Positions 4,698 through 28,120 of a stretch of DNA of 58,535 bases are shown piece after piece. The DNA comes from Akkermansia muciniphila. GTDB lineage: Bacteria; Verrucomicrobiota; Verrucomicrobiia; Chthoniobacterales; Chthoniobacteraceae. The notes beneath the pieces were generated by a model that saw nothing but the letters and a program-made list of their open reading frames with translations, was not told where the DNA came from and searched no databases. The position numbers were made by a program, and so were the translations under genes. Within the stretch, counting starts at the first letter, position 1; every line of letters begins with the position of its first letter. The stretch lies in assembly GCA_945883955.1 (NCBI GenBank), contig CAMCYN010000001.1:1-58535 (forward strand), read 5' to 3'.

Positions 4698-6872
4698 ATG
4701 CGCAGATTCTTCGTATTCTGGATGATGCTGGCCGCTTCTCTTTCGGTCCAAGCTGCTTCCCCGATCCTCTTAGCCATTGAACCCCCGTGTGGACAGGCTG
4801 GCACGACGCAGGAAGTGGTTTTGCGGGGGATGTACCTGGAGGACATCGAGGCGGTTCACGTCCATGAACCCGGAGTGAAGGTGACATTACTCGATTGGGC
4901 TCCAGCACAGGGAGGCGATGTGCGGTTACGCGAAAAGCGGGCCAGGATCGAAATTGAGCCGGGACATCAACCCGGGAACGTCCACCTCCGAGTTCGGACG
5001 CGGACGGGAATTTCCCCTCCCCGTTCCTTTCACATTAACCGTTTGCCAATCGTCAACGAGGTCGAGGCCGAGACCTCTACAAAGGCGAGCGCCCAGTTGG
5101 TAAGAATGGAGCACACAGCGTGGGGGCATCTGCGGCGGTACGAAACAGATTGGTACCGGATTCCCTTAAAAAAGGGCCAGCGGTGTAGTCTGGAGGTGCT
5201 GGGATTGCGGATCTCGGCCACCTACCTGGACGTTGTGCTGCAGATTTTTACACCGGACGGAAAACTGTTCCGTGAGACCGATACGTCGACTCTCTATTAC
5301 CACGATCCGGTGTGTTCGTTTCAGGCAACGATGGACGGCGAGTATCGCGTTTCGTTGCGGGATACCCGCAATAACTTTGATCAGGATGACGCTCGCTACG
5401 GCTTTGGAAAGGACTGCATGTATGTCATGCACGTGGGGGATTATCCGCAACCCGAGACGGTGTGGCCGTTGGGTGGAGCGATGGGAGAAACGAAAAGTTT
5501 GGTGTTTAATGGCGGTGAGGGCGGCCCATTTCGCCAGGAGGTCACTTTTAGTAAACGCGAGTCGTTTGTTCGAAGCGAACCTGTGGGACCAGACAAGGGC
5601 CCCTGGGCATTCCAGAATCCCGAGGCCGTGTACCCCGTTCAAAATGGCGTAACGGGCACAGGCCCGGTGTTCGTGATGGCATCGTCACTTCCGCCCGTTG
5701 TGGAGGAAGCCAAACACGACGCGGCACCGATCGCGCAGGTGTTACCGCAGGTTCCCTGTGTGGTGGACGGCCTCATCGGCAGGTCTGGCGAAGTGGACTG
5801 GTATTCCATCCAGGGAAAAAAGGGGGACGTATTGCACGTGGAGGTTTACGCACGACGCCTTCGCTCGAAGCTGGATTCCGTGCTGAAGGCCGTCGCTGGA
5901 GGGAACACGGTGGAGAATGACGACTTGCGGAAATACACAGTCGATTCGTCGCTGAATATCAAAATGGAGGCGGACACCTGCCTGGTGAGTGTCACTGATG
6001 TGCGAGGGGAAGGCGGGGCAGATTATTCGTACCGACTGGTGGTGGAACGTCCTCGTTCGCGCGGAGTGTTAACCACCGAGGCCGTTGAAAAGCAGACGCT
6101 GTTGCCCCGGTTTCGGGCAGGAATTCAAGCTGCCGTACCTCGTGGCGGGCGTACGCTGTTACTGTTGAGGACAAGCGAGGAAGGGGAACGTTTACCGGCA
6201 TTTCGGGCCGAGATCTCCGGGTTGCCCAAAGGAGTCTCAGTAGAGGCGGCACAAGTCGCGCCGCAGCAGACCTATCACCCCGTTGTTTTGTCGGCAGCGG
6301 AAGCCGCCCCGCTGGATGCCACGTTTGCCACACCCCGGGGTGTGCCGCTCAACGGGGGCTCGCCCATTGAGTTTCAGCAGGACGTCGGATTGATCCATGG
6401 TCACCCGGCGCAAACCACCTGGCATACCGCATATTTCCGGCAGGTGGCGGTGGCGACGGTGGAAAAGCTGCCCTTCAGCGTGACGATGAGTCTGGTGGAG
6501 CCACGCGCAGCAAAGGGAGGTAAGGCGAAGGTGGTTCTCCATGTAACGCGTGACGCCGGTGCGGCTTTTCCGGTGATGTTGATGTTCCCGTGTCAGCCTC
6601 CCGGCGGAGATCTGGGGATGCTGGAGGTGCCGGCGAATCAATCAGAAGTTGAGGCGTCTTTTGAAATCAGCGCGGACGCCCCAAGTGGTCTCTGGCCTCT
6701 GGTTGCGGTCGCCACCGATACGGATCTCGCGCACTTAAGGGACGGAGGCTGGCCGTATTATGATCTTAAGCCCAAGGACGGAAAGAAGATGGAGGCCCAT
6801 GGTTTGAACTGGACCTGTACACCGATCACTTATCTCGAAATCACGCCCAAAACAGCCGATTCCGCAAAATGA
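4698..6872 (+). CDS. Secreted protein with two pre-peptidase C-terminal (PPC)-like domains
   Basis: Signal peptide MRRFFVFWMMLAASLSVQA. Two DWY..G..L.V blocks (TDWYRIPLKKGQRCSLEVLG and VDWYSIQGKKGDVLHVEVYA) are typical of PPC domains. Confidence 0.55.
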   Translation: MRRFFVFWMMLAASLSVQAASPILLAIEPPCGQAGTTQEVVLRGMYLEDIEAVHVHEPGVKVTLLDWAPAQGGDVRLREKRARIEIEPGHQPGNVHLRVRTRTGISPPRSFHINRLPIVNEVEAETSTKASAQLVRMEHTAWGHLRRYETDWYRIPLKKGQRCSLEVLGLRISATYLDVVLQIFTPDGKLFRETDTSTLYYHDPVCSFQATMDGEYRVSLRDTRNNFDQDDARYGFGKDCMYVMHVGDYPQPETVWPLGGAMGETKSLVFNGGEGGPFRQEVTFSKRESFVRSEPVGPDKGPWAFQNPEAVYPVQNGVTGTGPVFVMASSLPPVVEEAKHDAAPIAQVLPQVPCVVDGLIGRSGEVDWYSIQGKKGDVLHVEVYARRLRSKLDSVLKAVAGGNTVENDDLRKYTVDSSLNIKMEADTCLVSVTDVRGEGGADYSYRLVVERPRSRGVLTTEAVEKQTLLPRFRAGIQAAVPRGGRTLLLLRTSEEGERLPAFRAEISGLPKGVSVEAAQVAPQQTYHPVVLSAAEAAPLDATFATPRGVPLNGGSPIEFQQDVGLIHGHPAQTTWHTAYFRQVAVATVEKLPFSVTMSLVEPRAAKGGKAKVVLHVTRDAGAAFPVMLMFPCQPPGGDLGMLEVPANQSEVEASFEISADAPSGLWPLVAVATDTDLAHLRDGGWPYYDLKPKDGKKMEAHGLNWTCTPITYLEITPKTADSAK

Positions 6873-9286
6873 AAACCTTCTTTTCGCTCTGTCTCATCGT
6901 GTGTTTTGCGCGCATCAGCGCTGCCGCCACGCTCGGGATTTTTCCGCCCGAAATCCGTATCGGCCCGAAGACGAATCACCAGCCTGTGGTGATCAGTTTT
7001 ACTGATGAGGCCGGTTTTACGCAGGATGTCAGTGGGGCAGCAAAGGCGACTTTTGCTGTGCCGGGGATCGCCGAATGGACCGTACAAGAGTTGCATGCGA
7101 CTGCCACAGGCGACACGACGTTGACCGTGGAGTACCGCGGCCACAAGGCCAGCGCACCCGTAAAAGTGCGGGCGCTGGAGCCAGAACGCGTTTCGTATCT
7201 TACCGAAGTCGGACCGGTCCTGATGCGGTACGGCTGTAATGGCGGTGGGTGTCATGGCGCTTCACGTGGGAAGGAAGGCTTCCGGTTGTCTCTTTTTGGG
7301 TACGATCCCGAAATCGATTATTTCCGCCTTACCCGGGAATTTGTGAACCGCCGCGTCAACCTTGCGGCTCCCGAAGAAAGTCTCCTTCTTCTTAAAGCGT
7401 CCAATGAACTCCCTCATGGCGGAGGCAAAAAGCTGGTTCCCAGCGACCCGAATTATGAGCTGTTACGCCGCTGGATTGCGGCTGGAGCTGAGGAAGACAC
7501 CTCTTCCTCGGTACACATGGCCTCTGTATCGGTGTTCCCTTCGGTGTTAACCCTGGACGCCAAAGGCCAGACTCACGCAGTCCGCGTGATTGCCTCGATG
7601 AGTGACGGCACACGTCGCGATGTGACGCATCTGAGCATCCTGGAGACCTCAGACAAATCCGTGGCGAGCGTGAACGCCGACGGGCTGATTACGAGCCATC
7701 GGCGCGGGGAAGCCTTTGTGTCCGTGCGTTTGCCGGCACTCATCACCGGTGTGCGGGTGGATGTGGTGCCACGTTTGGCTTCGCCACTGCCGCCATCCCC
7801 CGTGGCGTTTAACTTCATCGACAAACACGTATTTGCGCGACTGCAACAGCTCCGGATTGTACCGGCGGAACTTGCCGACGACCGAACCTTTATCCGACGG
7901 GTGTATATCGACACCATTGGTCTTCTGCCGACGGCCGAGGAAGTCACCGCATTTCTCACCGATACGAGTCCTCAAAAACGCGTACATCTGATTGATACGC
8001 TGCTGCAACGCGGCGAGTTCATCGAACTCTGGACGATGAAATGGATGGAGCGCCTGCAGGCGCGAAGCATCGTAAACGCGTCTGCGGGTATCCAGAAAGC
8101 GACGCTTAAATATTCTGATTGGATGAATCGGCAGCTCTCGGATCGGGTGCCAATGAATCAGATCTTTCGAAACATGATCGGCAGCACCGGGACCTGGATC
8201 GAGCAACCCGAGACCAACTTTTACCGCGAAAAAGATCCCAAGATCCTCATGGAAAACATGAGCCAGCTCTTTCTCGGAGCCCGCTTGCAGTGCGCCCAGT
8301 GTCACAACCATCCCTTCGATCGCTGGACCCAAAATGATTATTACGGAATGGCGGCATTCTTTTCGCGGGTGGGCAAGAAGTCGGTCGAAGACATGCAGGA
8401 CATGATGGTCTTTGAGAATCGAACCGGTGAGATGCTGCATCCGGTCACCCAAACGGAAATGGCACCCAAATTCCTGGGTGGAGCGACCCCGAAAACAGGC
8501 GCCATGGACCGGCGCAAGGTGCTTGCGGACTGGCTCACCTCCAAGGACAACACACTTGTGGCCAAGAACCTGTCGAACATCTACTGGCAGCATTTCTTCG
8601 GGGTCGGCATCATTGACCCGGTCGATGATGTTCGCGTCTCCAACCCGCCATCGAACCCCGCTCTGCTAGACGCACTGGCGAAACGCCTGACCGAGGCCAA
8701 TTTCGATTTCCGTACCCTGATAAGAGACATCCTGAATTCGCGCACTTATCAGCAGGCCTCGTTGCCCAACGAAACCAACCGGAACGATCAACGCAACTTC
8801 TCACGCTGTTATCCGAGACGACCGCAGGCTGAAGTCCTGTTGGACTGTATCAACGAAGTTACGGGGTATCATCCCGCCTTGAGCCGTCTCGAATTGCCCG
8901 GAAACAGGGCTGTCCAGATCGCGGATGGCGGTACAACCACCCCGTTCCTGACTTTGTTCGGCCGCAGCCGGCGCGAAACACCTTGCTCCTGTGAGACCAA
9001 GTCCGCGCCTACACTCCCGCAGGCACTGCATCTCATCAATGGAGACACCGTCACCAGCAGCATTCGAAATGGGGGGCAGATTCCAAAATGGCTAAAGCGC
9101 TTCGACGGTGACCTGGAGAAAGTGATCGACCACGCCGTGCTTTCGACACTCGGTCGAAATCCGACGGATGCAGAAAAGACGGCCTTTGCCCAAGCCCTCC
9201 AAACCCATCCGGGCGGGAAAGACGCCGCTTTGGAAGACATTCTTTGGACGCTACTGAACAGTTCCGAGTTCCTCTTTAACCACTAA
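6869..9286 (+). CDS. Big_2 + DUF1549 (PSCyt2) + DUF1553 (PSD1) protein
   Basis: ATGA overlap with the upstream gene. Hallmark blocks are LQCAQCHNHPFDRWTQNDYYGMAAFF and NIYWQHFFGVGIIDPVDDVRVSNPPSNPALLDALA. Big_2-like segments lie in the N-terminal third. Confidence 0.85.
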   Translation: MKTFFSLCLIVCFARISAAATLGIFPPEIRIGPKTNHQPVVISFTDEAGFTQDVSGAAKATFAVPGIAEWTVQELHATATGDTTLTVEYRGHKASAPVKVRALEPERVSYLTEVGPVLMRYGCNGGGCHGASRGKEGFRLSLFGYDPEIDYFRLTREFVNRRVNLAAPEESLLLLKASNELPHGGGKKLVPSDPNYELLRRWIAAGAEEDTSSSVHMASVSVFPSVLTLDAKGQTHAVRVIASMSDGTRRDVTHLSILETSDKSVASVNADGLITSHRRGEAFVSVRLPALITGVRVDVVPRLASPLPPSPVAFNFIDKHVFARLQQLRIVPAELADDRTFIRRVYIDTIGLLPTAEEVTAFLTDTSPQKRVHLIDTLLQRGEFIELWTMKWMERLQARSIVNASAGIQKATLKYSDWMNRQLSDRVPMNQIFRNMIGSTGTWIEQPETNFYREKDPKILMENMSQLFLGARLQCAQCHNHPFDRWTQNDYYGMAAFFSRVGKKSVEDMQDMMVFENRTGEMLHPVTQTEMAPKFLGGATPKTGAMDRRKVLADWLTSKDNTLVAKNLSNIYWQHFFGVGIIDPVDDVRVSNPPSNPALLDALAKRLTEANFDFRTLIRDILNSRTYQQASLPNETNRNDQRNFSRCYPRRPQAEVLLDCINEVTGYHPALSRLELPGNRAVQIADGGTTTPFLTLFGRSRRETPCSCETKSAPTLPQALHLINGDTVTSSIRNGGQIPKWLKRFDGDLEKVIDHAVLSTLGRNPTDAEKTAFAQALQTHPGGKDAALEDILWTLLNSSEFLFNH

Positions 9287-21269: not shown

Positions 21270-23249
21270 CTACCACAGCATCAGCACGCTCACATGCAGC
21301 CTGGACGAACCGGCCTTCACCTGGGGGAGCCCGGGTTGATTCTGCTCGTTCAGAGCACACCCCAAGTCGGTCCGCAGCATTCCGTTCAGCTTGCCGCGAA
21401 ACACCATGTCCATCCCCACCCCCGCCCCAACAAGTGAGCGGTCTCCCACCTCCCCGAATCCCGGTTTCGCCTGATTCACATGGACCTGCGCGCCGTCCAC
21501 AAAGCCCCGCAACGCCACCTCCACCGGAAGCCCTTTGCCCACAAACCATCCGGCCCTCGACTGCCCCCGGGCCGCCGCCCTGTCCGATTCCACCCCGACG
21601 CCGCGCGGAACCCGCATTTCGGAGTCTGTCTCGGACTGTGCTTCCTTCTGCCTTGCAGCAGCTTCTCTGGCCCACCGCCCCCTCAAGAAATCGTTTAACC
21701 GCAACCGATACTCCGCAGTCGCAAAAGATACCGTGTCCCCAGCAGCCAAAGACTCGCGGTACCCACGCACCGAATCCATTCCCCCGGCCACGCCTTGGAA
21801 CTGCGGCACCAACCGCGCCTGATCCCAGGCCACCTGGCCCCTCATGTTCAAGGCCAGCTCGTGTGCACCGCCCAGAGCCGCCTTTTTAGCTGAAAACAAA
21901 TCCAAGAATTTCACCGCCCGGCGGCTGAACATCACATTCCAGCGGGAAACCAACGCCTCCTCGGCTGGATTGACCCGACCCAAAATCGCATTGTCTCGAT
22001 CCTCCGTGGCGGCGTATTCGGTCTGAAACGAACCACTCAGACGCCCAAGGCGGCCCGGTTTTTCAGCCGCCACCGACACGTACGGAACCAGGAACGTCGA
22101 ACTTCCCTCCTGCCCCGCCACATCATTCCGCACCGCCGCATCCAAAACATAAGCTCCGCCCGTAATCGAAAGGGGCCACGATTTCCCCAAATCGGGCGTC
22201 CAAGTGCTCTGCACTCCCAAAGTCTGCGAGGTGGACCGGAATCCCAAGCCCAACTGCCCCAGATCCGCCAGCGACAGATCCGAGTACGACCCATACACCC
22301 GCAGTTTCCATATGTCGGGAAACACGAGTGTGGACTCCGATGCAATGGAAACGCTCTTGTACTTCTCAAAATCCGAAGTCGTGTAATCCAGCGTCTCCAC
22401 ATCGTCCGCGCCCCACGCCTGGCGCAGCTCTACCCCCAGGCGGCTCCGCCACTCGCCGGATTCCTTGTTCCCCGAGTTGGAGGTCAGCACACTTGCGCTT
22501 AAGCGCTTCTGCTCCTGCTCAAGCAGGGTCAGGTTCAACGTCCCCGAGGCTTCCCCCGGCGCTAGCACGCTCTCCGCTCGGCGTCCAGAATACCGGTTCA
22601 CCCGATCCAGATAATTCTGCAGCGCGTCTTTGCGAAGCAAAGCTCCGGGTTGAAGGGGAGACTGAGCCGCTATGCGTTTTCCCACGGACTCGGCGGGAAA
22701 CAGCCACGCCGGCCCGGCTCCCGTGCGCCGCAGGAAGTCCAGTTTGGCCACCCGGCTGTAGTACACCAGCATCCGCAGCTCCCCTTGTCCGGCCAGCCGG
22801 TTCTCTACAAGGGGGCTGACTCCCAAATCAATCTGCCCGGGATCAACCACCACCAAAACTCCATAAATACCTTGCTGATTGAGTTTCGAAACCACCGCTC
22901 GGCTCACTGCCACAATCGCCGAAGCACCAAAACGACGCGCCTTTCCATCCCCCCCAAGCCGCACTTTCTCCGAGCCCTTTTCCCCCGGAAGTAAGGCCGC
23001 CATTTGCCCGGAAACAGACTTGAGCGGCACCTCCAGTTTTTCAAAAACTGTCAGATCAGGGAGCGAGCCATCCCGCCCCTTGCCATCCTCGGGATCCTGA
23101 TAGGCAAACACAAAACGCGTCACCGCCACACTGGATTCTTGAGCGGCAAGTTCTGTGGGAACAGCCGAAGAACCAGTCGCACTTCGCAAACACACCGCGC
23201 CGACAAAGATGGAAACGGAAATCGAAGCAACAGAAATAAAATTCCTCAT
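21270..23249 (-). CDS. ShlB/FhaC-type outer-membrane transporter (TpsB-like) of a two-partner secretion pair
   Basis: Signal peptide from MRNFISVASISVSIFVGAVCL (start at 23249; the track ORF extends to 23303). The size and glycine/aromatic-rich beta-strand pattern fit an outer-membrane barrel, and the protein ends in a terminal aromatic residue (..VSVLMLW). It lies immediately downstream of a TPS-domain gene. Confidence 0.6.
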   Translation of the reverse strand: MRNFISVASISVSIFVGAVCLRSATGSSAVPTELAAQESSVAVTRFVFAYQDPEDGKGRDGSLPDLTVFEKLEVPLKSVSGQMAALLPGEKGSEKVRLGGDGKARRFGASAIVAVSRAVVSKLNQQGIYGVLVVVDPGQIDLGVSPLVENRLAGQGELRMLVYYSRVAKLDFLRRTGAGPAWLFPAESVGKRIAAQSPLQPGALLRKDALQNYLDRVNRYSGRRAESVLAPGEASGTLNLTLLEQEQKRLSASVLTSNSGNKESGEWRSRLGVELRQAWGADDVETLDYTTSDFEKYKSVSIASESTLVFPDIWKLRVYGSYSDLSLADLGQLGLGFRSTSQTLGVQSTWTPDLGKSWPLSITGGAYVLDAAVRNDVAGQEGSSTFLVPYVSVAAEKPGRLGRLSGSFQTEYAATEDRDNAILGRVNPAEEALVSRWNVMFSRRAVKFLDLFSAKKAALGGAHELALNMRGQVAWDQARLVPQFQGVAGGMDSVRGYRESLAAGDTVSFATAEYRLRLNDFLRGRWAREAAARQKEAQSETDSEMRVPRGVGVESDRAAARGQSRAGWFVGKGLPVEVALRGFVDGAQVHVNQAKPGFGEVGDRSLVGAGVGMDMVFRGKLNGMLRTDLGCALNEQNQPGLPQVKAGSSRLHVSVLMLW

Positions 23250-23319: not shown

Positions 23320-25275
23320 TTACTGCCTCTTCTTAGAGGAACCCTCAGTGCCGTCGTTGAGCAGATTGTTGGACGAGAGGATGATCCCCCCCGTGAAGGC
23401 GTCTCCGGCGGAGAGGGGCTTTCCTCCACGAAATCCCCGCTCCGATTCCCCGAAGCTCGAACCCGGCTTGAGATTCAGTTTCTCCACCGAAGCCGAGGTC
23501 AGGCGAACCTGTGAAGCAGGTCCGACGAAGAGGCCCCCACCAGCGGCCTCACTCTTGACGGTAACCTCCGAAGCGAATCTGGGTACCGCAGCCGAGGTTA
23601 GAACCCCGCCAAAGTCCACCGCGCCAATTTGAGGATTCACAATCCCTTTGTCGTTGCGAGTGCCTCCGGGCGTGATTACTCCCATGAAGTTCAACACTTT
23701 CGCCATCAAATCGAACCCGATTGAATCCACCAACCGGTTGCCTGCCGCAGTCTTGATGCCTACCAAATCGTCCACGATAATCGGGAACACCTCTAGGTTC
23801 GGATCCACTAGGACCGGGTCCTCCGGGCGCTCGACCGCCGGATCCTTACTGTCTGCCAATGGGTCCTTGATAGGCGGGTCGACAATCGGGTCGAGCGAAT
23901 CCTGCACCGTGAAGGTTCCTTCCTGTCCTGCAGGAGCGGAAACATCCGCCACCAGCGTCGCGGCCTGAGTGACCTGCTGATTGGACTGCAACGTGATGCG
24001 GCCCCCATCCCCGCCCACCTCGCCACCCCGAGCCAGCAAGATTCCGTCGACGCTCAGGGAATCCCCGCCAGACAACCAAATAGAACCGCCATTGCCTTTG
24101 CCCACGCCACTAACATCCAACAGGGATGCTCCATCCGCGGCTCCAACCACGGTGACGTCCTTTCCGAAAACGGAAATCTCGCCGCCCTGCACATCGCCCC
24201 GAGCGCTTAGCGTTGCCCCAGCCAGCTCCACGGATTCGCCCGAAATAGTGATGCTTCCCACCGGATTCGCAGCATTTTGATTCTGCTGAGACGCGTCGAT
24301 TCCTCCGGAAACCACCACCTTCGTGGAAGCATCCACCCGCACGCTCTTTGTTGCTGTTGTTTGCCCGGTATGTTTGACCCCGATGGCGTACAAATCGCCT
24401 GCTCCCATATAAACAGAACGCGCTCTTATCGCGCCCGCCTGAGTCACCGCTGCCTGCGAACTGTCCGAAGGGGCCTTCGCCGCACCCTTCTTGGCGGCGC
24501 GGCTCGTTTTTTCTTTGGGTGCCGCAAGCTGTAGTTCCGCCGATAACGCGCTCTCCGATCCTGCGGCATTTGCGATATTCTGCACCACCGCCACATCACC
24601 TCCCTCTTCGCTCACCACAACATTCTCACCGGAGACCATCGCTACCAAGCCATTGGGAGCCACGATCGAGCCCGTGTTGGAGACCGTCCGGCCCAACAAA
24701 GCAACTCCCTCACCAGCGGTAATCTGCCCGGCGTTTTCCACCGAACCTGTGAGGTTCACCGAAAGTTTACCGCCGTTCTTGAGGAAATCGTCGTCCGAGA
24801 TGGTACCAGCAGCAGCCACCAGATTTCCCACCGAAATCACGCTGCCCGACCCGAAAAAGATCCCAGCCGAATTAGCTAAAACCACCCGGCCATTGGCGTC
24901 CATCCGCCCCAAGATCTCCGAAGGGGTTCCGTCCGTGGCCCGGGCCAGCACCGTGCTCGTCGCGCTGGGTTGCACGAATTTGAGCGACTCATCCGCTGCG
25001 ATGTTGAACTTCGTGAAGTTCAAAATGGAACGGTCGGAAACGTTCACCGTCATGGTTTTGTCCGTGCTGGAGATGGAGGCCTGACCGGCTACCGCCTGTC
25101 CTCCCACGGGAAGAGCGTGCACGGGAGAGCTGAGGCAAACCGCAGCGAGCGCCGTCGCGATGGAGGCACTCAGGATCCGAGGTATCCGGTTGGGGTGGCG
25201 TTTGGGGGACGTCTTTGTATCTATTGTGGTTTTGCGGTTCATCGCTTTTTGGGGTTTTTTCGATTGATTTTCCAA
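23320..25275 (-). CDS. Filamentous-haemagglutinin-type exoprotein (TpsA-like) with N-terminal TPS (haemagg_act) domain
   Basis: LPVGGQAVAGQASISSTDKTMTVNVSDRSILNFTKFNIAADESLKFVQPSATSTVLARATDGTPSEILGRMDANGRVVLANSAGIFFGSGSVISVGNLVAAAG follows the TPS-domain pattern. The rest is Gly/Ser/Val-rich and beta-helix-like. Confidence 0.75.
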   Translation of the reverse strand: MENQSKKPQKAMNRKTTIDTKTSPKRHPNRIPRILSASIATALAAVCLSSPVHALPVGGQAVAGQASISSTDKTMTVNVSDRSILNFTKFNIAADESLKFVQPSATSTVLARATDGTPSEILGRMDANGRVVLANSAGIFFGSGSVISVGNLVAAAGTISDDDFLKNGGKLSVNLTGSVENAGQITAGEGVALLGRTVSNTGSIVAPNGLVAMVSGENVVVSEEGGDVAVVQNIANAAGSESALSAELQLAAPKEKTSRAAKKGAAKAPSDSSQAAVTQAGAIRARSVYMGAGDLYAIGVKHTGQTTATKSVRVDASTKVVVSGGIDASQQNQNAANPVGSITISGESVELAGATLSARGDVQGGEISVFGKDVTVVGAADGASLLDVSGVGKGNGGSIWLSGGDSLSVDGILLARGGEVGGDGGRITLQSNQQVTQAATLVADVSAPAGQEGTFTVQDSLDPIVDPPIKDPLADSKDPAVERPEDPVLVDPNLEVFPIIVDDLVGIKTAAGNRLVDSIGFDLMAKVLNFMGVITPGGTRNDKGIVNPQIGAVDFGGVLTSAAVPRFASEVTVKSEAAGGGLFVGPASQVRLTSASVEKLNLKPGSSFGESERGFRGGKPLSAGDAFTGGIILSSNNLLNDGTEGSSKKRQ

Positions 25276-25442
25276 CGGCGATTAACTGACGGACTTATCA
25301 CAAGTCCTTCGGCTGCATACCTAGCCGTTGGTCTAGGTCTATTACTTTTCACTTAGTACGTTTTGGTGAATTTCCCTTGGATCACGCCAGAGCCGGACAG
25401 ACCCAATTTTTCTTCTGTCGAAAGATCGCACTGCCGGGGCCC

Positions 25443-25537
25443 GGCAGGGACTCCACTTTGGAACTGGGAAATGGCACCTTCATAAGAAGCTCACACAAAG
25501 GAACGCCACCCCGGCTTCCTTTTGTCACAAAACTTTC
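25443..25537 (-). promoter_or_regulatory. ~95-nt conserved upstream element, copy A (oriented toward tpsA)
   Basis: 69/95 ungapped identities (hand count) with the reverse complement of 25921..26015. The repeat itself is certain; a regulatory role is inferred. Confidence 0.6.
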
Positions 25538-25920
25538 AGCGCCACCTGAAAACGCCCCTGAAATGCGATTTCGCCTCAACGAATCCTGCGCTACGCCGCT
25601 CGACACCAAGCAGATCAAAATCCCAACCGGTTTCTGTTTATAAACTTACGAATTACCGCGCCGCGATAATATAGCCCCTCCCTCAATGCGTACGTAAAAA
25701 GGAATTTCCTCAGCATCAGTAATGCGGACTACGCGGCTACCCTTGCTGGGATGAAAGCTCAAAGGAATGCCTTCGACTCCTGTCACTGGCGCAAGAGTGG
25801 ATCCTTTCTTTCATAAATCTCGGGTCACTTCTGCGGAGTAGCCAAGTTTACGGTGAAGCCGTGTCGTGGGTATTTCCGGTCGGGGATTCGGTTCGGTAAC
25901 AAAATGTTTTAGGTAGACGG

Positions 25921-26015
25921 AAAACTTTTGTGACAAAAAGAGGCTTCGGTGGCGTTTTGACGTCAGCGCTTCTTATGACCCCGTCTTTTCCCAGCTCAAA
26001 AATGGAGTCCTGGCC
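25921..26015 (+). promoter_or_regulatory. ~95-nt conserved upstream element, copy B (oriented toward the ECF sigma gene)
   Basis: Conserved blocks TTTTGTGACAAAA, GGTGGCGTT, GCTTCTTATGA, TTTCCCAG and (A/G)TGGAGTCC occur in the same order as in copy A. Confidence 0.6.
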
Positions 26016-26055
26016 GAATAGCGCCGGGATCGATCGTTTTGGGGTGGGCTCGGAA

Positions 26056-26601
26056 ATGGAGCCTTGGCGAATTTGTTACCGGGAACTAGGTGCCAAGCTT
26101 TTGTTGTATGCGAGGCAGTTTTTGCAATCGGACCATTATACCGTCGGACAAGAAGCGGAAGACGTAGTCCAGACTGCGTTTCTGCGATTCTGGAAGCTCT
26201 ATCCGAACGCGCAACCGGAGCAGTACGGCCTTTTGTTTTCTGCTGTTCGAACGGCGGCGCTCGACGTTTTACGCAGTTCATTCCGGCGGCTGCGGCGCGA
26301 AGATTTATATTCGGCGGAAGTCTGTGATGTGCGCGATACGGCGGCACTGCAGGCGAGTCGGGATTCGTGGTTTGCGGTGGCAAGTGATCAACAGGCGAAA
26401 GCCGATAACATTCAGAATGCGTTGCAGAAGATTCCGTCTGAACAACGCGAGGTGATTGTTTTGAAGGTTTGGGGGGAACTTACGTTTATCCAGATTGCGT
26501 TATCGTTAAACGAATCGGCCAACACTGTGGCGTCGCGTTACAGGTTGGGACTGAAAGCGCTGAAAAAGGAGTTAAGTGGTTATGGCTATGCCGGCTTCTA
26601 A
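26056..26601 (+). CDS. ECF-type RNA polymerase sigma-70 family factor
   Basis: Region 2 (AEDVVQTAFLRFWKLY) and region 4 (IPSEQREVIVLKVWGELTFIQIALSLNESANTVASRYRLGLKALKK). The likely start is MEPWRICY at 26056; alternatives are ATG 26002 and GTG 25930. Confidence 0.8.
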   Translation: MEPWRICYRELGAKLLLYARQFLQSDHYTVGQEAEDVVQTAFLRFWKLYPNAQPEQYGLLFSAVRTAALDVLRSSFRRLRREDLYSAEVCDVRDTAALQASRDSWFAVASDQQAKADNIQNALQKIPSEQREVIVLKVWGELTFIQIALSLNESANTVASRYRLGLKALKKELSGYGYAGF

Positions 26602-28120
26602 CTTGGAGCTGGCCTTAAGAGGGCTCCCGCTTGCGGAGCCGTCTCCGGGTTTGGAGGCTGCTATCGGCCGGGCGTTGCATATCGCCTTACCGGAGGCGCT
26701 TCTGTCCGAAAAGAGTGTAGAATGTTTGGTGGCGACTGAATTAAGGGCGTGTGTACCAGCAACTCCGAGTGAAAGGTTGGAGGAACGTTTAGAGGATTTG
26801 GCGGAGGTTGAACTCCATTTGCGGAGCCTGAAACCGGCTCCCTTACGGAGCGATTTGGAGTCAGAGCTCGAAATCGAATTGACCGAAGATCTGGCGTTTG
26901 AGACGTGGCTTTCGACGGTTCGTCCGAGTGTTGAATCCGAGGCGTTGGAGAAAGTGATAGGGACGCAGATGGGGCTTCATACGCTGAAAGAAGAAGAGAT
27001 TGCCATTGGTATCTCTGAGGTTCCTTTACTGCAGTTGGTTGCATCTCACGAACAGAAGGCTGCGGTTGTCTCAACAAAGGTGCGTTGGTCTGCAGTATTT
27101 TTTGCAACGGTGGGGTTAGCGGCGGCGCTTGTGGTGAGCGTGCAGACGGGAGTGCTGGATACTCCGCTCTACCGTCCGTCTGGAGCTACTGCGGATCTGA
27201 CCCGAAAAGAGACTTCGGGTTCAGAGTTTCTGAAAAAACCACCGAGTTTCACCGTAAAGAAGGGCGATTCGAGTGCAGCTTTAAGCGTAAATAAGTCCAC
27301 CGTTGGTGAAGCAAGTGGGGGATTGGGAGAGGTTAACCCAAATTGGCGTTTGGCAGAGAGAGTCCCGGAAATAAAGAGGGCGGCGATCTCGCGGGCGGTG
27401 GCGCCGGAGTCTGCGACTGAGGATGCGGAAAGGCTGTCGCCTCAACCAGTGAGGTCATTGAACGAGGTCGCGCTTGCGTCTTCCACCAGGGGAGTGTTGG
27501 CGCGTACAGCGGCAGTGACGGAACCTGGGGCGAAGCCCAAGCCGGAAACACGTCCGGATCAAAAGTTGGATCCCACGGCAGAACCGTCGATTTTACAGGC
27601 AATAGCGTCTGGAGATTTAGCGAACGTTTTGCCGCCCGAACTTTTGACGGCTCTGACGACGCAACCTGTTTTAGTAGCCAGCGTGCCCTCTACTTCCCTG
27701 CGCAACACCTTGGAACCAAAGCTCACCGCGAATACCTCCAAGGGTGAGGCTGGACTCGTTTTTAGCAATTCCGCGCCAACGAACAACGGGCCTTCTTCGA
27801 CCATCGGATCGCCGGACGGAGTAACTGGACGTGCTAATGGGCAAGAGATCGCGGCGGTGGGAAATCCGGCACTAACGACTTCTCTTGGCGATGCGAAGGA
27901 GGGAGTCCCTGTGGTGGTTCCGCCAATCGAGAGGACTTATATCATTGAAGACAAAGATGATGTTATAATGATTACTGGAGTTCCAGGGAACTGGATTGCC
28001 GAGCATACGGAGTTAAAGACAGGGAACACCAAGATCTCGGAAGTCTTTTCAAATGAAACGGGGTTAACCGATTTCGTGAAGCGCGAGACGAACACACAGG
28101 AGCCAGAGAAGGGGGATTAG
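26582..28120 (+). CDS. Single-pass membrane protein, putative anti-sigma factor
   Basis: Overlaps the sigma gene stop by 20 nt. The cytoplasmic N-region carries four L(R/S)xxxPxxxSxxLE-type repeats. One TM segment (VRWSAVFFATVGLAAALVVSV) is followed by a long Ser/Thr/Pro/Ala-rich external part. No zf-HC2 or FecR motif recognised. Confidence 0.45.
   Translation: MAMPASNLELALRGLPLAEPSPGLEAAIGRALHIALPEALLSEKSVECLVATELRACVPATPSERLEERLEDLAEVELHLRSLKPAPLRSDLESELEIELTEDLAFETWLSTVRPSVESEALEKVIGTQMGLHTLKEEEIAIGISEVPLLQLVASHEQKAAVVSTKVRWSAVFFATVGLAAALVVSVQTGVLDTPLYRPSGATADLTRKETSGSEFLKKPPSFTVKKGDSSAALSVNKSTVGEASGGLGEVNPNWRLAERVPEIKRAAISRAVAPESATEDAERLSPQPVRSLNEVALASSTRGVLARTAAVTEPGAKPKPETRPDQKLDPTAEPSILQAIASGDLANVLPPELLTALTTQPVLVASVPSTSLRNTLEPKLTANTSKGEAGLVFSNSAPTNNGPSSTIGSPDGVTGRANGQEIAAVGNPALTTSLGDAKEGVPVVVPPIERTYIIEDKDDVIMITGVPGNWIAEHTELKTGNTKISEVFSNETGLTDFVKRETNTQEPEKGD

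Follow-up and report, generated by a model that had tools for sequence, protein, structure and literature searches.

The window, that is, the whole stretch of 58,535 nucleotides (58.5 kb) of DNA analysed here, originates from a lake-water metagenome and contains two adjoining transcription units that are read away from each other. The unit on the minus strand encodes a TpsA/TpsB secretion pair, and the unit on the plus strand encodes an ECF sigma factor followed by an anti-sigma-like membrane protein. A repeat of slightly more than 100 nt is present in two inverted copies, copy A directed towards tpsA and copy B running into the sigma gene. The features are listed below by their position in the window.

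21270 to 23249, minus strand: tpsB, encoding a transporter of the ShlB/FhaC type (PF03865, 30 bits, cut-off 22.7)
23320 to 25242, minus strand: tpsA, 640 aa from the ATG at 25242, with a TPS secretion domain (PF05860, E 1.6e-22; TIGR01901)
25382 to 25483, minus strand: 33-codon ORF, MKVPFPSSKVESLPGPGSAIFRQKKNWVCPALA followed by a stop, with the first 14 codons sigma-derived
25441 to 25554, minus strand: copy A, an inverted partial duplicate of the sigma 5' region, pointing towards tpsA
25502 to 25510, minus strand: extended -10 block GGTGGCGTT of copy A, with its CGTT core at 25505-25502
25521 to 25528, minus strand: -35 element GTGACAAA of copy A, recognised by PWM score and motif match
25905 to 26016, plus strand: copy B, the native sigma 5' region, comprising upstream flank, -35, -10, 18-nt leader and codons 1-14
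25930 to 25937, plus strand: -35 element GTGACAAA of copy B, unchanged upstream of sigma at 7 of 8 loci, with TTGATAAA at L065
25948 to 25956, plus strand: extended -10 block GGTGGCGTT of copy B, with its CGTT core at 25953-25956, 15 nt past the -35 element
25975 to 26601, plus strand: ECF sigma factor gene, 208 aa, starting MTPSFPSSKMESWP, with Sigma70_r2 and r4_2 domains (TIGR02937)
26576 to 28120, plus strand: gene for the anti-sigma-like single-pass membrane protein, 514 aa, overlapping the end of the sigma gene

An earlier note, made from the letters of this DNA, had counted 69 identities over 95 ungapped positions between 25443-25537 on the minus strand and 25921-26015 on the plus strand. 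This count proved to be exact, and the five conserved blocks described for the two copies were all found in identical order. A repeat search returned inverted arms at 25442-25551 and 25907-26016 (110 nt, 71% complementary), and local alignment of copy A with copy B delimited a homologous unit of ~113 nt (minus strand 25554-25441, plus strand 25905-26016), its score of 69 comparing with 17.1 ± 2.3 and a maximum of 27 in 300 shuffles. The flanks upstream of about 25554 and 25905 and downstream of 25441 and 26016 gave alignment scores at the level of shuffled sequence. The 13-mer TTTTGTGACAAAA occurs twice in the 58.5-kb window, both times within the repeat copies, against an expectation of 0.06. 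In the source metagenome run, no other contig at least 80% identical to copy A or copy B was found, a threshold that copies of ~70% identity would escape. The sequencing runs in which the locus was found are all DNA runs of a single lake metagenome, and no RNA run was among them. Copy B can be aligned with the upstream regions of the sigma orthologues at L001, L002/L012, L003 and L005. A stretch of the central spacer between the two promoters (25653-25710) is matched by three other contigs of the source run, in alignments of 34-58 nt that contain 4-10 mismatches; one of these contigs is 58 nt long and has a depth of 85. This stretch has no Rfam match.

The protein encoded downstream of copy B contains only the sigma2 and sigma4 regions (PF04542, PF08281) and thus belongs to the ECF sigma factors (group 4). 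It reaches 58.5 bits against TIGR02937 (cut-off 42.9), and passes only the general ECF superfamily model, its scores for all NCBIfam equivalog and subfamily models staying under their cut-offs. Among solved structures, SigW is the closest relative, with SigE and SigK also among the PDB matches, and its named homologues are from Verrucomicrobiota and Chthoniobacteraceae. Three possible start codons share one frame, namely ATG 25975 (inside GCTTCTTATGA), ATG 26002 and ATG 26056. The true start is most likely ATG 25975, inside copy B, rather than 26056 or 26002, because it yields 208 aa as in the closest homologues (P0004, P0005 and L012) and an N-terminal motif common to them; those proteins open MTLPFPN(S/P)K(I/L)ESL(Q/P), and the window sigma opens MTPSFPSSKMESWP. 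The earlier statement that copy B ends 40 nt upstream of the sigma start is thereby superseded, as the start lies within the copy. Similarly, the blocks GCTTCTTATGA, TTTCCCAG and TGGAGTCC had been described as parts of a leader; their conservation holds, but instead of forming an untranslated leader they correspond to the sigma start codon and codons 5-12. Differences among the sigma 5' coding sequences fall mainly at third codon positions. Since the third, fourth and fifth blocks are coding, copy B is best described as the sigma promoter, 18 nt from CGTT to ATG, and codons 1-14.

About 28 extra residues precede region 2 in this sigma factor, and the in-frame starts at 25975, 26002 and 26056 could give isoforms. 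A direct repeat is present in the 5' coding region at 25994-26014 and 26048-26068 (GCTCAAAAATGGAGTCCTGGC vs GCTCGGAAATGGAGCCTTGGC, 81% identical), with its units 54 nt (18 codons) apart, and at the peptide level SSKMESWP is similar to GSEMEPWR. A tandem duplication of the original region 2 start may have given rise to the N-terminal extension, the match between the units being statistically weak. At the other end of the protein, the sigma orthologue of L066 (6239-6874) loses all similarity beyond the conserved EQR of region 4 and stops early, at 211 aa; the anti-sigma-like gene of the same locus encodes only 284 aa, and frameshift or decay, or an assembly error, would account for this.

Both repeat copies contain a bipartite ECF-type motif, GTGACAAA-N15-CGTT, with the extended -10 block GGTGGCGTT. 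In copy A, the motif lies at 25528-25502 on the minus strand, with the same elements and spacing and on the coding strand upstream of tpsA. Upstream of the sigma gene, it occurs with fixed spacing at 8 of 8 loci (L001, L002/L012, L003/L004, L005/L006, L064, L065, L066 and L067), which are all the sigma orthologue loci retrieved, L065 being counted with its variant TTGATAAA. The spacer sequence is free to vary between these eight sigma loci, and CGTT usually stands within GGTG[GA]CGTT at the sigma-upstream sites. The motif is always on the coding strand, and 17-28 nt separate its CGTT core from the start codon. Many ECF promoters have AAC in the -35 element where the present motif has GAC, a difference that speaks against the promoter reading. 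When a PWM was trained on the sigma-upstream sites only, with copy A excluded from the model, copy A scored 38.0 bits and ranked second in the 58.5-kb window; the next match reached 7.5 bits, and shuffles of the whole window scored with the same PWM averaged 4.8 bits and reached 16.5 bits at most. No sigma-70-like promoter was detected between 25200 and 26200.

Strict-motif scans of collections that do not include the window's own genome returned 25 matches in genome contigs and 32 in metagenome contigs, mostly by chance, for instance inside the coding region of a response regulator from Enterococcus. The related matches were L012, L021 (identical to L005), L047 (identical to L002) and possibly L010, and the PVC matches lay only upstream of sigma orthologues, with one further site in Akkermansiaceae. 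This last site (L010, 2159-2189 on the minus strand, in an Akkermansiaceae MAG) is a full motif, TTTTGTGACAAAA-N12-GACGTT, just upstream of a gene for a 255-aa signal-peptide protein. With a PWM score of 13.2 bits, this site could be recognised by a related sigma factor of another Verrucomicrobiota family or could have arisen by chance.

On the other side of the repeat, the combination of a TpsA with an N-terminal TPS domain and a TpsB of the Omp85/ShlB type identifies a two-partner secretion system (type Vb). The longest ORFs of both genes begin at TTG. Alignment with the L064 orthologues and the positions of the signal peptides indicate that tpsA most likely starts at ATG 25242 and not at TTG 25275, and that tpsB probably starts at Met 23249 and not at TTG 23303. 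With these ATG starts the gap between tpsA and tpsB is 70 nt, as in L064, and copy A ends ~200 nt upstream of tpsA, which replaces the 168 nt given earlier. The window TpsA is 59% identical to the L064 TpsA, which is encoded behind sigma and anti-sigma, and the window TpsB is 60% identical to its L064 counterpart over the full length, with the alignment running from residue 19. Beyond tpsAB lie a 267-aa orphan gene and the remnant of an IS110 transposase that flanks the TPS block.

The association of this sigma factor with tpsAB is not restricted to the window. In L064, L066 and L067, tpsA-tpsB orthologues lie directly downstream of the sigma and anti-sigma genes on the same strand, with a gap of 39-108 nt before tpsA and a single motif per locus, upstream of sigma. 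A weak terminator-like hairpin occurs between anti-sigma and tpsA in L064; no such hairpin was found in the gap before tpsA in L067. L068 is a stand-alone tpsAB operon (TpsA 47% identical) with no sigma gene within 8 kb, and it carries GTGACAAA-N15-CGTT with GGTGGCGTT ~70 nt upstream of tpsA, the top PWM match of the locus at 17.8 bits, with the next at 3.6. The predicted regulatory link to tpsAB is thus kept as an operon in L064, L066 and L067 and as a motif in L068. The exception is L069, whose TpsA is the closest by identity (61%) and whose stand-alone operon beside panC has no recognisable motif upstream.

The L068 tpsAB leader also contains a GTG-initiated 18-codon ORF of its own (7948-8004, VGLVPKALIHLTNYKPES and a stop), the TGA of which overlaps the tpsA ATG (TCATGA); it is not homologous to the 33-codon ORF of the window. 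At three further loci (L003, 5488-11196; L005, 3537-9226; and the P0013 locus), the anti-sigma-like gene is followed by a gene for a Beta_propel protein (PF09826) of 1127-1182 aa and not by tpsAB. The sigma orthologues of these loci show 62-69% identity and have a divergent sulfatase gene upstream, and no second motif was found before the propeller gene. A β-propeller protein in place of TpsAB behind some sigma orthologues indicates that the cargo gene varies between lineages.

A domain-less protein follows every sigma orthologue for which the downstream gene could be read, with 470-562 aa and, in L066, 284 aa. In all relatives, the gene at this place overlaps the sigma gene and encodes a protein with a single membrane pass. 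The 514-aa protein of the window has no Pfam, NCBIfam or PDB match, and no anti-sigma domain was recognised in it; its position behind the sigma gene and its single-pass topology suggest an anti-sigma role.

The degree to which copy A has been preserved was assessed by comparison with copy B and its orthologues. At positions that are invariant among copy B, L001 and L012, copy A agrees in 46 of 52 cases, among them all 18 promoter positions and 23 of the 25 that belong to the ORF, and at variable positions copies A and B are identical in only 32 of 58. Under a neutral-decay model, ~27% of the invariant sites would be expected to differ and 11.5% were observed to do so (P = 0.005); the model is crude, taking variable-site divergence as twice the neutral branch length and pooling the 52 positions over four segments. 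Over the 14 codons, copies A and B are identical at 31 of 42 positions, in the range found among the orthologues themselves (28-32 of 42), and dN/dS over 13 codons between copy A and L012 is 0.20/1.21, like that of true orthologue pairs. Taken together, the retention of invariant sites, the A-B distance as between orthologues and the similar dN/dS indicate that the duplication is old and that copy A has been kept, the promoter boxes showing this clearly and the 14 codons suggesting it.

These 14 codons open the 33-codon ORF, which ends 139 nt before the tpsA ATG at 25242 and may either have a function as an upstream ORF or be no more than a relic. The tail of the ORF has no homology to the sigma core. 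The leader of tpsA in L068 has only the promoter in common with copy A, so that a sigma-derived ORF is not general in ECF-driven tpsA leaders. A short leader peptide had been among the possibilities raised in the earlier note. The ORF in copy A does keep the sigma N-terminal motif, and the frame opens nine codons upstream of the codon that had been named. To our knowledge, an ECF N-terminal extension whose first codons recur as a separate small ORF has not been described. In addition, a GC-rich hairpin can be drawn from codons 12-13 (S-L-P) in copy A (25431-25447, minus strand, CUGCCGG-GCC-CCGGCAG) and in copy B (26007-26030, plus strand), where it is terminator-like and followed by CGAUCGUUUU. 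A counterpart occurs in L012 (~6590-6612, minus strand) and is not clear in L001. Both window copies have CGATC(G)TTT after the hairpin, which is possibly an attenuator.

It is likely that the sigma gene is autoregulated from a promoter in copy B and that copy A is a duplicate of this promoter driving tpsAB, the two units being co-induced. A shared ECF-dependent promoter that couples TpsA/TpsB to the sigma/anti-sigma switch was the explanation favoured at the outset, and phylogenetic footprinting and synteny now support it. According to this model, the membrane anti-sigma-like protein would release the sigma factor, and RNA polymerase bound to it would begin transcription at the two divergent promoters, with predicted start sites ~6-10 nt after the CGTT cores; for the sigma gene, the motif geometry would place the transcription start ~11-13 nt upstream of ATG 25975. 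Firing at copy B would amplify sigma and anti-sigma, and firing at copy A would transcribe tpsAB via a leader of ~250 nt that opens with the sigma-derived 33-codon ORF. The same coupling would be realised in L064, L066 and L067 by the place of tpsAB within the sigma operon, and in L068 by a promoter of this type that tpsAB has to itself. The layout of the window would derive most simply from the operonic one, if a rearrangement had placed a copy of the promoter and of the first sigma codons before tpsA. The IS110 remnant flanking the TPS block fits such a rearrangement.

That same remnant would also suit a different history, in which copy A is a decaying and inactive by-product of a tpsAB inversion and tpsAB is transcribed from another, unrecognised promoter; the length of the 250-nt leader and the motif-less tpsAB of L069 could be cited in its favour. 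However, copy A has both promoter boxes intact (22 of 22 positions), whereas the spacer between them, though unchanged in length, is identical at only 5 of 10 positions, every one of the 18 orthologue-invariant promoter positions is retained, the same motif stands independently before tpsA in L068, and no alternative sigma-70-type promoter was found, all of which makes simple decay improbable. It is still harder to sustain that the palindrome TTTTGT-G-ACAAAA serves both units as the operator of a dimeric regulator (e.g., of the CRP/FNR type) and is not part of an ECF -35 element. The 6+1+6 palindrome is perfect in both copies and in L001, L012, L003 and L005, but its left half is lost in L064, L066 and L067 (AGCTGTGACAAAATG) and in L068 (CGCAGTGACAAAGTC), and what remains conserved is GTGACAAA plus CGTT at a fixed 15 nt, always on the coding strand and with the core 17-28 nt from the start codon. 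Because the left half-site is unconserved in these four loci, the conserved unit is the -35/-10 pair and not a dyad operator. Least probable of all, to the point of being hardly credible, is a MITE-like mobile repeat or a structured leader RNA, both of which had been listed as alternatives and neither of which found support. The size of ~110 nt, the inverted orientation and local hairpins after codon 12 in copy A, copy B and L012 would be compatible with such an element. On the other hand, there are two copies in 58.5 kb and none of at least 80% identity elsewhere in the source run, terminal repeats and target duplications are absent, and the strict-motif matches in PVC genomes are sigma-upstream apart from the one Akkermansiaceae site. 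With regard to RNA structure, folding z-scores range from -0.04 to -1.6, the consensus structure reaches -1.4 kcal/mol with no covariation, and an Rfam search of the repeat gave only a meaningless 14-bit match to RAGATH-33.

A further reading adds to the promoter explanation and does not replace it. The 14 shared codons could constitute a functional module, either a peptide motif (M-x-x-P-F-P-S/N-x-K-x-E-S-L-P) or a translated leader, in which case copy A would have been kept also for a small protein or upstream ORF, acting in feedback on the switch or in the control of tpsA translation. The retention of 23 of the 25 invariant ORF positions and the orthologue-like dN/dS of copy A against L012 (0.20/1.21) are consistent with this, and the copy A peptide fits the family consensus at least as well as that of copy B. 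The pattern FP..S...ESLP is likewise found at the start of the sigma factors in the TPS-linked clade (L064/L066/L067), and regulatory N-terminal extensions are found in ECF121, ECF36s4 and ECF12 (PMC7826278). Nevertheless, the sample comprises 14 codons only and the statistics are weak (P ~0.02 by hand estimate), the L068 tpsA leader has the promoter without a homologous ORF, and the homology stops abruptly past codon 14, with the remaining 19 codons matching nothing; a functional module is therefore considered rather unlikely. Slightly less likely again is a specific form of it, in which the N-terminal motif MxxPFP[S/N]xKxESLP is a regulatory peptide used twice, once tethered to sigma and once as a free 33-aa peptide from the tpsAB leader. 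If this were true, the free peptide, once the regulon is active, could vie with the sigma N-terminus for the anti-sigma protein or a protease, such competition would provide feedback between secretion and the sigma switch, and the regulon would have been wired by duplication of a promoter plus a peptide.

Under the preferred reading of copy A as a duplicated sigma promoter, the motif GTGACAAA-N15-CGTT comes with a first predicted regulon for an uncharacterised ECF sigma clade of uncultured Verrucomicrobiota, made up of sigma and anti-sigma together with a compact TpsA/TpsB secretion pair. The link between sigma and TpsAB persists through three arrangements, namely a common operon, divergent units with a duplicated promoter, and an unlinked tpsAB operon that has a promoter of its own. 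The window would clearly illustrate how a regulon can be wired when a promoter is duplicated along with the 5' end of its regulator's gene. With the sigma factor, its anti-sigma-like partner and two promoters, the locus offers a small set of components suited to testing, which could reveal the trigger for secretion of an unusually small TpsA.

An autoregulated ECF promoter combined with regulon promoters of the same type is standard ECF logic, as in B. subtilis SigW, E. coli RpoE and S. coelicolor SigR. The window resembles these systems in a sigma factor with sigma2 and sigma4 regions only, a sigma gene that overlaps the gene of a membrane protein, and a bipartite motif with a CGT-type -10 element before both the sigma gene and the target operon. 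It differs from them in that the partner protein has no recognisable anti-sigma domain and the putative target promoter is a homologous duplicate that includes 14 sigma codons, not a convergent motif. The common ECF -35 element is of the xGAAC type, and that of the window is GTGACAAA. N-terminal extensions of ECF factors are known but rare, as in BldN of ECF121, SigC of ECF36s4 and SigR' of ECF12 (PMC7826278). Like these, the window sigma has ~28 residues before region 2 and several in-frame starts; unlike them, it shows no sequence relationship to any of the three, and its first 14 codons also occur in a separate small ORF.

The closest functional precedent is PUMA3 (VreA-VreI-VreR) of P. aeruginosa, where VreI switches on the TPS pair PA0690/PA0692 (PdtA/PdtB) (PMC2729926), and the window system is not a member of PUMA3. 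A domain scan of TpsA, TpsB, the IS110 remnant, the 267-aa orphan and a 224-aa ORF found no receptor-like protein and hence no VreA-like component among these flanking genes, and the partner protein lacks a FecR-type domain. The window further differs in its phylum (the closest named relatives being Verrucomicrobiota and Chthoniobacteraceae), in its small TpsA (640 aa) and in having relatives with tpsAB inside the sigma operon. What the two systems have in common is an ECF sigma factor and a membrane regulator beside a two-partner secretion system, with the regulatory role of the membrane protein and the control of tpsAB both predicted in the present case. The control scheme itself is therefore already known, and the joint duplication of a promoter and the N-terminus of its regulator, apparently under constraint, appears to be the one unusual feature of the locus.
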